Below are positions 4,441-6,930 of a DNA stretch of 11,339 nt, one piece after another. This stretch comes from a virus, in the UHGV virus genome UHGV-0227772, one strand, 5' to 3'. Each line of letters begins with the position of its first letter. Positions within the stretch are counted from its first letter, which is position 1. A program made the translations under genes and the position numbers. A model generated the notes under the pieces. It had not been told where the DNA came from and searched no databases. It saw only the letters and a program-made list of their open reading frames with translations.

Positions 4441-6930
4441 ATGAGCACTGATAAAGAAGAAATTGCACTGTATTACGAAGCCAAAAATGACAAAGTCAGA
4501 AAACGCCTTGGGATTAAAGGCGGTTTTTACTGGCGCACAGCAAAAAAATTATCGGTTGCAATATCACGGGGTGTTGTCGCAATGGACGATGCTGGATTTG
4601 ACGAAGAGGATTTCAAAAAACCTGTTCGCGTGAATTTGCCCATTGTTAATGACCTGCCGCCTGAAGGTGTGTTTGATACCGAATTCTGCAACCGCTATGA
4701 AAAAGGCGGGGAAGATGGCATCACCATGATGGCTATACCCTTCAATGACAACATCAACGGTGAAGATGCCACAACTGCTGGCGATGACAACGATGACCCG
4801 GACGGAACTATTCCGGATGATGTGGAGAAAAACGAATCCCCGGACAGCGACGATGACTGTTCTGAGTGTGAAATTCCCGTCGCCACTCTGAGCCTTACTC
4901 ATCGCTTCCTTCACCTCTTCTTATTCAGCAAAGATGAAGATGGAAAATACCGGCATCATGCCACACCAGAACAACGCAATAACGTGATCCGTATGGAGAT
5001 GGACACAGAGGACAGTTACCTTCAGAGCCTGCTTACTGCTGTGCGTTCACATCCAGAACTGGATAAGCTGACGAATTATCATCTGGGAAGACTGGCACAA
5101 TCCGTTGGAAAGGCATTCTCTCACTCAACAACCCGTCATATCGGCCCGGCCGAATTCGACAAGTTCATCTCCACCTGGATGAAAACAGACTATGTGGATC
5201 AGGGATTGCTGACAAAAGAATGGCAGAAAGGAAATTGTGTTACAGGCATCACCCGTACGCCTTCCGGTGCTAACGCTGGCGGCGGAAATCTTACCGATCG
5301 TGGCGAAGGCTTTACCCACAATCAGGCATCACTGGCGCGAGACATTGCCACTGGCGTTCTTGCCCGTTCAATGGATGTGGATATTTATAACCTGCACCCT
5401 GCACATGCAAAACGCGTTGAAGAAATCGTTGCAGAGAATAAACCGCCCTTTTCTGTTTTCCGTGACAAATTCATCGCCATGCCCGGTGGGCTGGATTATT
5501 CCCGCGCCATTGTGGTGGCTTCCGTAAAAGAAGCACCAATCGGCATTGAGGCTATCCCGGCGCGCGTGACTGAATATCTCAACAAAGTGTTGACCGAAAC
5601 CGATCATGCCAACCCTGATCCGGAAATCGTGGATATTGCCTGCGGTCGCTCATCAGCCCCGATGCCGCAGCGCGGAACAAAAGAAGGAAAACAGGATGAT
5701 GAAGAAAAACCGCAGCCATCTGGCGCAATGGCAGATGAACAGGCAACGGCTGAAACAATGGCAGCGGATACAGTTGAACATCATCAGGATCCGCAGCCGC
5801 TGGATGATAAGTCACAGATAAAAGTTACCGCTGAAGAAGTAAATAAAATTATGGAGGCAGCAAACATCAGTCGACCAGATGCCGACAAATTGCTTGCCGC
5901 TTCTCGTGGTGAGTTTGTTGAAGGGATTAGCGACCCGAATGATCCAAAATGGGTGAAGGGGATTGAAACCCGCGATTCGGTGAACCATAACCAGCAAGAA
6001 ACGGAACAGAAAGGCCATAAAGCGGAACAACACAGTCCAAATGCGCAACAAAACGAGCCAGAAACGAAACAGCCTGAACCAGTAGCGCAACAGGAACCGG
6101 AAAAAGTCTGCACAGCCTGCGGTCAGACCGGCGGCGGCAACTGTCCTGACTGTGGCACGGTGATGGGCGACGCAACATACCATGAGACATTCAACGAAGA
6201 AAGTCAGGATGAAGCCCGGGAAAAAGATCCGGAGGAAATGGAAAGTGCCGGACTCCCGAACAAGGAGTGCACCGAAGGCGATCAACATGCCAATGGCAAT
6301 AATGAAACAGGCGAGACAGCAAATCTCTTAATTAAGGTGAACGGTCATCGTGAAATCACATCCACCAGCAGGTTGTGGCACCATCTGATGATTGACCTTG
6401 AAACAATGGGCAAAAATCCTGACGCACCAATAGCCTCAATAGGCGCTGTATTTTTCGATCCACAAACCGGAGAGCAGGGGCCTGAATTCAGCAAAATAAT
6501 TGATATGGGTACATGTGGCGGCACTGTCGACATAAGCACAATCGAATGGTGGCTGGTACAGTCCAGCGAGGCCAGAACTGCAATTTTGGTAAATCAAATC
6601 CCATTAGATGATGCGCTGCTGCAACTCAAGGAATTCATCAGCGAGCATTCAGATGAAAAATTCGTGCAGGTATGGGGCAATGGTGCAACTTTCGACAACG
6701 TGATTTTACGCCGTTCATACGAACGACAGGGTATCCCCTGCCCGTGGCGCTACTGCAACGATCGCGATGTACGCACAATCGTTGAGCTGGGGAAAGCCAT
6801 AGACTTCGATGCCAGAACGGCTATTCCATTCGAAGGTGAGCGCCATAATGCACTTGATGACGCTCGTTACCAGGCAAAATACGTTTCAGCTATCTGGCAA
6901 AAACTGCTCCCGAGTCAGGCTGATTTTTAA
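4441..6930 (+). CDS. Large prophage exonuclease: long acidic N-terminal region, internal CxxC...CxxC element, C-terminal DEDDh (DnaQ-like) 3'-5' exonuclease domain
   Basis: 829-aa ORF with GAGG 8 nt upstream. C-terminal about 190 aa carry the three exonuclease motifs: MIDLETMG (D, E), [12 protein letters not shown] (D), [11 protein letters not shown] (H-x4-D). Zinc-ribbon-like [16 protein letters not shown] at about 6109-6156. Strongly acidic tracts such as [31 protein letters not shown]. The N-terminal region resembles what I recall of the non-catalytic N-terminus of RecE-family proteins. Confidence 0.75.

Follow-up and report, generated by a model that had tools for sequence, protein, structure and literature searches.

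The stretch of DNA analysed in this study, UHGV virus genome UHGV-0227772 (11,339 nucleotides, hereafter the window), is the early region of an Escherichia coli lambdoid prophage, with a best match that is ~93-95% identical over ~70% of the window. It contains an intact open reading frame (ORF) with an ATG start that encodes 829 amino acids (aa), here called the exo gene, and an identical protein, P0001, is present in ENA assembly ERZ807465. On the minus strand the window starts with an O-like replication gene, YdaT and YdaS/Cro-like genes. After the cro-like gene come a 150-aa regulator, PaaA2-ParE, DUF1391, a DicF-like element, dicB, a ydfD-like gene and the exo gene, which is followed by xis, int, two small minus-strand genes and the host flank (Table 1). 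The order dicB, ydfD, exo, xis, int is found in all E. coli contexts inspected in which the upstream genes are intact; the copy in L024 is truncated upstream. Like recE of the Rac prophage (exonuclease VIII, K-12 b1350), the exo gene lies at the distal end of the early-left operon, ahead of xis and int, and these two genes occupy the place that recT has in Rac, where the order is recE, recT, ralR, rcbA, xisR, intR. An earlier, sequence-only reading of this DNA had pointed to the recE-like position of the gene and had proposed an exonuclease with a C-terminal DEDDh 3'-5' domain and no RecT-like partner. The position is as proposed, but the relation to RecE is one of homology and not of position alone. 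Judged by its sequence, the 829-aa protein is a RecE scaffold, the non-catalytic front two-thirds of that enzyme, with an exchanged nuclease cassette.

The evidence for the scaffold comes from several comparisons. BLASTP aligns aa 58-631 with residues 50-591 of K-12 RecE at 54% identity (566 bits) and finds no similarity past RecE residue 591. DNA identity to recE is 0.78-0.90 over nucleotides 751-1350 of the gene, and the blastn match spans gene nucleotides 757-1892. Pfam family PF06630 is matched by aa 56-197 (E=6.4e-11), and aa 1-631 correspond to positions 1-602 of the 877 positions of the NCBIfam RecE equivalog NF007259; the score of 810.8 bits falls short of the cut-off of 1269, as nothing in the protein matches the final third of the model. 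The similarity ends 24 residues before the PDDEXK domain of K-12 RecE (PF12684, aa 615-850), and a joint of 16 residues (aa 632-647) lies between the scaffold and the DEDDh cassette. The scaffold family is narrow, with 228 clusters (50% identity) at E<=1e-3 among 1.84 billion representatives. A zinc-ribbon-like pair of CxxC motifs had also been noticed in this part of the protein. The pair is there, but the spacing of 12 residues given for it is not correct, the actual arrangement being C557-x2-C560-x7-C568-x2-C571. In the BLASTP alignment K-12 RecE carries CNACGQTGGDNCPDC where the 829-aa protein has this CxxC-x7-CxxC motif, and all four cysteines are kept in ~130 of 270 relatives, with varying residues between them. 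Acidic low-complexity tracts are present as described earlier: D and E make up 40% of aa 101-140 and ~25% of aa 411-462 and 576-646. RecE likewise has acidic and Q-rich disordered regions, and the comparison of the two proteins identifies the zinc motif and the acidic tracts as features inherited from the RecE N-terminal region. It has been reported that the function of the RecE N-terminus is unknown, and that it is dispensable for nuclease activity and enhances linear-linear recombination (PMC11611040).

The C-terminal part of the protein is a different nuclease from that of RecE. PF16473 (Rv2179c-like 3'-5' exoribonuclease) matches aa 647-819 over its full length (profile positions 1-177 of 177, E=3.5e-67, 226 bits against a cut-off of 27), and PF00929 (RNase_T) gives a weak match. 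Pfam finds no match to a PD-(D/E)xK family, PF12684/DUF3799 included, anywhere in the 829-aa protein, and DEDDh is the sole nuclease domain detected in it. The unlikeness to RecE is therefore that a PD-(D/E)xK 5'-3' double-stranded DNA (dsDNA) exonuclease with recT downstream is replaced by a DEDDh 3'-5' domain with no recT downstream. The catalytic residues D652 and E654 (in MIDLET), D752 (in ATFD), and H802 and D807 (in HNALDDA) align with D7, E9, D119, H186 and D191 of a T4-like DexA. Besides this DexA and the window domain, the alignment included five distant fusion proteins, two homologues from lytic phages and the mEpX2 standalone exonuclease. Three of the catalytic residues, D652, H802 and D807, do not vary among 10 diverse homologues. 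The only solved structure retrieved by sequence with aa 649-825 is that of DexA (8KEL/8KEN; phmmer against the PDB, E ~1e-6). When the modelled aa 647-825 (pLDDT ~66-93 in AlphaFold2, AF2) were searched with Foldseek, DexA 8KEL was again the top match (E=2e-7, probability 1.0), followed by Orn, REXO2 and ERI, likewise with probability 1.0, so that the domain has the RNase H-like DEDD fold. On both points the sequence-only reading is confirmed: the module is DEDDh and not PD-(D/E)xK, and its DEDDh residues fall on catalytic positions. We consider it reasonably probable that the exo gene encodes a metal-dependent 3'-5' DNA exonuclease built on a RecE scaffold, which acts without an annealing partner of its own and is produced when the prophage is induced. 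From the chemistry of the family, D652, E654, D752 and D807 would bind two divalent metal ions, H802 would serve as the general base, and nucleotides would be removed singly from free 3' ends.

AF2 models were made of the full-length protein and of its N-terminal part, with an input alignment of 67-73 sequences, and they divide the scaffold into two folded domains and two disordered regions (Table 1). The small domain D1 is swapped for an unrelated sequence in Qin-type alleles, the linker of aa 101-140 is the most variable segment between alleles, and the helical domain D2 is the most conserved part in common with RecE. Although both D1 and D2 are confidently predicted, neither matched a known fold. 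Two short helices (464-488) lie inside the disordered region of aa 411-646, and the stretch of low AF2 confidence, aa 413-642, takes in the zinc motif. Comparisons of alleles with dS ~0.8 gave a dN/dS of ~0.15 for the DEDDh domain, and values for the other parts are listed in Table 1. The folded parts are under purifying selection, and the gene is therefore real and not a chance ORF.

Table 1. Position of the features of the exo gene and of other elements in the window
Feature	Position	Strand	Basis or remark
829-aa gene: RecE N-terminal scaffold and DEDDh 3'-5' exonuclease	4441..6930	+	ORF list, translation; Pfam PF06630 and PF16473
Span homologous to K-12 RecE 50-591, aa 58-631	4612..6333	+	BLASTP, blastn
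Domain D1, small alpha/beta, aa 1-100	4441..4740	+	pLDDT 81-97 in both models; dN/dS 0.11-0.36
Acidic disordered linker, aa 101-140	4741..4860	+	pLDDT <50 at aa 103-138
Domain D2, all-helical, aa 141-410	4861..5670	+	pLDDT mostly >90; dN/dS ~0.10-0.13
Long Q/E/P-rich region, mostly disordered, aa 411-646	5671..6378	+	pLDDT 32-46 mostly; dN/dS ~0.5
Putative zinc knuckle, C557 to C571	6109..6153	+	Also in RecE; AF2 confidence low
DEDDh 3'-5' exonuclease domain, aa 647-825	6379..6915	+	PF16473 full length; alignment; Foldseek
Catalytic codon D652	6394-6396	+	Read from sequence
Catalytic codon E654	6400-6402	+	Read from sequence
Catalytic codon D752	6694-6696	+	Read from sequence
Catalytic codon H802	6844-6846	+	Read from sequence
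Catalytic codon D807	6859-6861	+	Read from sequence
150-aa regulator	within 2203-3147	+	phrog_5736
PaaA2 antitoxin	2622-2867	+	63 aa as called on source contig
ParE toxin	ORF 2773-3147, start probably internal	+	92 aa as called on source contig
DicF-like small RNA	3743-3791	+	Full-length sub-threshold match, 29 bits (gathering 48), E=6e-4
dicB	3975-4163	+	Pfam PF05358 / PF07358 matches for dicB and ydfD-like pair
DUF1482/ydfD-like gene	4154-4348	+	Pfam PF05358 / PF07358 matches for dicB and ydfD-like pair
Excisionase (xis)	6992-7261	+	PHROG 629
Lambda-type integrase (int)	7230-8348	+	PF09003 and PF00589
CxxCxxCC-domain ORF	9573-9887		
157-aa ORF	10177-10650	-	
YadA-anchor autotransporter C-terminus	10739-11251	-	

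The novelty that the sequence-only reading implied for this protein was overstated. DNA of the DEDDh cassette is present in 4071 of 5426 complete E. coli genomes (75%), where it occupies 8090 places, with as many as 7 in one genome, while DNA of the K-12 recE nuclease and recT is present in 1750 of the same 5426 genomes (32%). The best 120 database matches all combine PF06630 with PF16473, and all but one come from E. coli. They carry the names 'exonuclease', '3'-5' exoribonuclease' or, wrongly, 'exodeoxyribonuclease VIII', single clusters among them occur on up to 989 contigs, and the RefSeq/NCBI annotation of the architecture is '3'-5' exonuclease'. The architecture is very common, already annotated and experimentally uncharacterised, and it is commoner in E. 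coli than RecE. Our literature searches on Rv2179c and prophage, ydfE, and PF16473/PF06630 found nothing. The window copy is a divergent allele: the nearest database protein is at most 85% identical to it, and its DEDDh cassette has ~83% nucleotide identity to nearly all other E. coli copies. The gene is also a mosaic, in which segments are either 99-100% or 30-85% identical to other alleles.

Such mosaicism is also seen at the extreme N-terminus of the family. The YdfE pseudogene of the Qin prophage (K-12 b1577) has a like locus, dicB, ydfD, ydfE, (IS2), intQ, and was considered as a remnant of the 829-aa protein. This was rejected, as BLASTP gives no match between K-12 YdfE and the 829-aa protein and the first 255 aa of YdfE are unrelated to it. 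From dicB through the first 255 ydfE codons, K-12 is 100% identical to PA11, where the gene is unbroken and encodes a Qin-type exonuclease of 823 aa that has this DEDDh domain too. By this comparison ydfE is the 5' portion of a sister allele of the Qin type whose N-terminus is unrelated, and the extreme N-terminus is thus itself an exchangeable cassette.

Whether all these copies are merely non-functional relics of illegitimate recombination, kept by hitch-hiking in decaying prophages, is a question that their distribution and their sequence evolution can address. Many carriers are cryptic prophages, interrupted copies exist in L023 (by an IS3 insertion), in L024 (by truncation) and in K-12 (ydfE, cut by IS2), and one representative lacks two catalytic residues. 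Against this, thousands of genomes have intact copies of 813-847 aa, which also occur in records of sequenced phages, vB_EcoS-689R5 among them, the fusion is kept in lineages that are only ~32-35% identical in the N-terminal region, and dN/dS is ~0.15 in the DEDDh domain and ~0.1 in D2 between alleles with dS ~0.8. The purifying selection on the folded parts argues against a dead relic despite the interrupted and truncated copies, and we regard this explanation as extremely improbable.

The absence of an annealing partner is the second main feature of the locus. Neither in any ORF of the window nor from int to the Q antiterminator of the 27-kb source contig did Pfam and PHROGs find a member of the RecT, Bet, Erf, Rad52 or Sak families. 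This agrees with the claims that no recT- or bet-like gene follows, that xis and int come next and that the locus, with a DEDDh nuclease and no single-strand annealing protein (SSAP), is not a canonical RecET pair. The two-component recombinases (Red, RecET, SynExo) have an adjacent SSAP and a PD-(D/E)xK 5'-3' dsDNA exonuclease, and the window has neither. The DUF1627, DUF977 and DUF968 genes of the source contig were considered as places for a hidden SSAP, but PHROGs puts them in unknown-function, Ren-like and HNH families, none of which is an SSAP. The intact DEDDh-form loci inspected in E. coli were ten contexts of the P0040 cluster, the best-matching chromosome, two Qin-type sites at rspB and phage vB_EcoS-689R5. 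All of them show exo, xis, int and no SSAP, and so do the two representatives with ~32-35% identity in the N-terminal region. The two interrupted copies, L023 and L024, are both at the rspB site and have no SSAP. The distant PD-(D/E)xK representatives P0134 and P0131 have RecT directly downstream, as in Rac, and 1728 of the 1750 genomes with recE-nuclease and recT DNA hold at least 80% of the joint nuclease-plus-recT stretch. In the sampled loci each cassette has its own downstream partner or none, a pattern that rests on ~20 sampled loci and is not a census; a cross-species survey of genome contigs returned only three RecE-like loci. A further arrangement was seen in P0124 (703 aa), where the RecE N-terminus is in frame with RecT (PF03837, aa 528-678) and the nuclease domain is deleted.

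These loci also bear on the idea that the exo protein is the exonuclease of a two-component recombination system whose annealing protein (RecT, Bet or Erf) comes in trans from another prophage or from the host. Several lambdoid prophages are often present in one E. coli genome, as reflected in the up to 7 cassette copies, about one third of genomes also carry recE-recT, and standalone homologues of the cassette adjoin Erf and SSB in P22-like phages. However, a 3'-5' polarity gives 5' overhangs, while known SSAPs load on 3' tails made by a 5'-3' exonuclease (PMC11611040). Known SSAPs also contact their own exonuclease, and the RecE domain for this contact is the very part that has been replaced. 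With the cassette in 75% and recT in 32% of genomes, most hosts of the fusion must be without a Rac-type RecT. A partner supplied in trans is therefore very unlikely in our view, and an exonuclease that acts without one is the reading we pursue.

The relatives of the DEDDh domain bear on its substrate. T4 DexA (exonuclease A), the best PDB match in both sequence and structure, is a 3'-5' DNA exonuclease whose recognition of 5-hydroxymethylcytosine (5hmC) needs W152 and D169 (PMC12153337). DexA differs from the window domain in being a standalone protein of 227 aa with extra loops, the identity is ~28%, and W152 and D169 are not kept in the window protein. The position of W152 is C772, and that of D169 is K785 or A786 by an alignment that is uncertain in the D169 loop. 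MAFFT also sets D724 opposite D90 of DexA, a tetramerisation residue that is A78 in EcD, in a segment that aligns poorly. Position 772 (codon 6754-6756) varies among the fusion proteins inside a fixed PWRY-x-NDRD, with T in 95, Y in 14, C in 5 and H or N in a few, and it could be a specificity site under diversifying selection.

EcD, a DexA homologue of E. coli (GenBank HAK9828821.1; Kang et al., NAR 2025, PMC12153337), cleaves only 5hmC-DNA, spares unmodified dsDNA and protects against T4, an activity for which the name 'HREX' has been used (PMC12153337). Like the window domain, EcD belongs to the DexA/Rv2179c-like DEDDh family and is a prophage early gene; unlike the 829-aa protein, it is standalone, begins at its MID-x-E motif without a RecE scaffold, and keeps the W and an acidic residue. 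Through the published primers we recovered an EcD-like ORF of 189 aa in IMG/VR contigs. Residue 78 of this ORF is Ala, as stated for EcD, W and E stand at the W152 and D169 positions, and the identity to window aa 650-822 is 39% (E=3e-36). That EcD is simply the C-terminus of the fusion was considered and rejected, because the primers encode MIDTET, which is found in 0 of 270 collected proteins, and the EcD-like ORF is standalone and only 39% identical. The EcD-like gene (L051 6401-6991, minus strand; also L030, L035, L045, L046 and L048) lies in the early operon of a P2-like prophage, in the order int, cox-like, DUF4761, EcD-like, Dam methylase, DUF4406. Kang et al. describe EcD as bacterial and do not mention prophages (PMC12153337).

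These observations invite the suggestion that the exo gene encodes an exclusion nuclease of the HREX type, which like EcD would selectively digest T-even phage DNA that contains 5hmC and would guard the lysogen or the induced cell against superinfection. EcD is itself a prophage-borne DexA homologue that degrades T4 DNA and protects E. coli (PMC12153337), the EcD-like ORF is recognisably related to the window domain, and a sole variable site within an otherwise fixed motif is what a specificity determinant might look like. Nevertheless, both residues for 5hmC recognition are absent, and the gene is inside a repressed early operon and not in the position of a moron that is expressed in the lysogen. 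In addition, PADLOC gives only one generic match, to a Cas-associated DEDDh nuclease (E=1.7e-5), and the suggestion leaves the 630-aa RecE scaffold without a role. We therefore think an HREX-type function unlikely for this protein.

Another possibility raised by family membership is that the enzyme acts on RNA, trimming or degrading the 3' ends of mRNA, small RNA or short oligoribonucleotides on prophage induction. The description of PF16473 calls its founder, Rv2179c of Mycobacterium tuberculosis, a 3'-5' exoribonuclease, the structural neighbours of the domain include Orn, REXO2, ERI1/3 and 3'hExo, and a DicF-like small RNA lies in the same operon. Rv2179c has its Pfam family in common with the window domain, but it is a chromosomal, single-domain protein, and phmmer against the PDB with the window protein retrieves DexA alone and not Rv2179c, even at E<=10. 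The closest non-fused relative of the C-terminal domain is a standalone 182-aa protein annotated as '3'-5' exoribonuclease' (mEpX2 gp31, mEp235, epsilon34 gp34, g341c), which lacks the N-terminal scaffold. The mEpX2 protein, encoded in the early-left operon, shows 60% identity across 88% of the query and has the same catalytic motifs, and its counterparts in epsilon34 and g341c are 90% identical to it. In mEpX2 and epsilon34 the gene order is Erf, SSB, exo, Abc2, which is a recombination module, and in mEp460 the standalone gene is directly ahead of xis. In lytic phages, homologues of the cassette lie near DNA polymerase or, as DexA, beside Dda. DNA is the substrate of the nearest characterised relatives, the domain is attached to the scaffold of a recombination nuclease, and many DEDDh enzymes act on both nucleic acids, so that an RNA-only activity is a narrow claim. 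We judge it quite unlikely. DNA would be the likelier substrate because the closest characterised relatives in sequence are DNA exonucleases (the EcD-like ORF at 39%, DexA at 28%), because Erf-type modules have a standalone version of 60% identity between SSB and Abc2, and because the scaffold that carries the DEDDh domain is one of DNA recombination. We also considered, and dropped, translation of this domain on its own from the internal M650, as no Shine-Dalgarno-like sequence lies upstream of that codon.

Taken up again with these comparisons in hand, the reading of the exo protein as a DNA 3'-5' exonuclease without an annealing partner would work as follows. Being the last gene of a repressor-controlled early-left operon before xis and int, exo would be made on induction and not in the lysogen. 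Its polarity is opposite to that of RecE and it has no dedicated annealing protein, so it should not be able to feed single-strand annealing of the RecT type; RecT-type systems make no use of the 5' tails that a 3'-5' enzyme leaves, and its action would therefore be one without strand annealing. Most likely the protein works by itself and, independently of any SSAP, processes or degrades 3' ends of DNA, which could be those of the phage, the host or a competing phage. It might process ends while DNA is replicated or recombined, protect ends against RecBCD, degrade the DNA of the host or of a competitor, or act in exclusion. The N-terminal scaffold may have a selectable role, such as targeting, that is independent of the nuclease attached to it.

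Several points weigh against this reading. RNA is a conceivable substrate in view of the exoribonuclease name in Pfam and NCBI and of Orn, REXO2 and ERI, which come next after DexA in the structural search. Expression from the early-left promoter is read only from gene order, and a scan for a promoter that could serve lysogenic expression gave 7 sites against 10.9 expected by chance. An annealing protein could come in trans from another prophage. We found no biochemistry of the fusion protein or of a close relative in the searchable literature. Finally, P0152, a 752-aa DEDDh fusion that represents a 50% cluster, has E to K and D to A changes at two catalytic positions and is probably catalytically inactive, so that some lineages may use the protein without catalysis.

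What is new here is comparative: the RecE N-terminal scaffold is conserved under selection together with alternative nuclease cassettes, which amounts to a natural experiment on its function. Purifying selection acts on this region even where it is joined to a nuclease of opposite polarity that has no annealer, which implies a function of the scaffold that is independent of RecET-type annealing. We speculate, with low expectation that it will hold, that the first ~630 residues of RecE are an autonomous module of a new fold (two folded domains without structural relatives and a zinc knuckle) that serves enterobacterial prophages as a delivery platform for at least three cassettes, that the DEDDh form is SSAP-independent and that the residue at the W152 position tunes its substrate. 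The cassettes would be the PD-(D/E)xK nuclease with RecT, the DEDDh domain with nothing, and a tail of ~380 aa with a Sipho_Gp157 protein. If this is true, the scaffold would take a 3'-5' exonuclease to a particular target, for example dsDNA ends, a host repair complex like RecBCD or SSB, or incoming foreign DNA, and the DEDDh form, working without an SSAP, would be the commonest of the three cassettes in E. coli. Since the cassette belongs to the family of T4 DexA and EcD, its activity and specificity are directly testable. Both are relevant to conflict between prophages and between phage and host in pathogenic E. coli, which have up to seven copies.

Among 150 scaffold representatives, ~16 carry the DEDDh domain and ~22 the RecE nuclease, and many others have tails of 200-400 aa with no recognisable domain; in ten family members without either known nuclease cassette, Pfam gave no extra domains. 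Tails that match neither cassette nor Pfam are found in P0143 (L059 4001-6445), P0126, P0160, P0177, P0189, P0192, P0202, P0217, P0261 and P0237. In P0143 a Sipho_Gp157 gene comes next, in place of recT or xis. This class of tails is possibly a third effector cassette.

Other elements of the window were noted in passing. Directly after the divergent cro-like gene, the three-gene module at 2203-3147 (plus strand) resembles the paaR2-paaA2-parE2 toxin-antitoxin system of O157 prophages, and most E. coli loci with the exonuclease also have this module of regulator, PaaA2 and ParE. The DicF-like element has a terminator-like hairpin with a T-run at its end (3760-3786) and is located as dicF is in Qin, upstream of dicB; a 52-aa ORF that overlaps it (3624-3782) has no family match and is probably spurious. 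Between int and the prophage end, two genes on the minus strand (8425-9091) are in a moron-like position. One encodes a 155-aa DUF2335 membrane protein (phrog_3996, 'moron/host takeover') with a faint PADLOC match to PD-T4-6 (E=0.002), and the second, of 67-73 aa, belongs to no family. The E. coli prophage loci that match best abut potC, and the right flank of the window (9372-11339) is unlike them. In L010 and L015, prophages with a different integrase are also bordered by the 157-aa and YadA genes of this flank, which may be a common integration hot spot.

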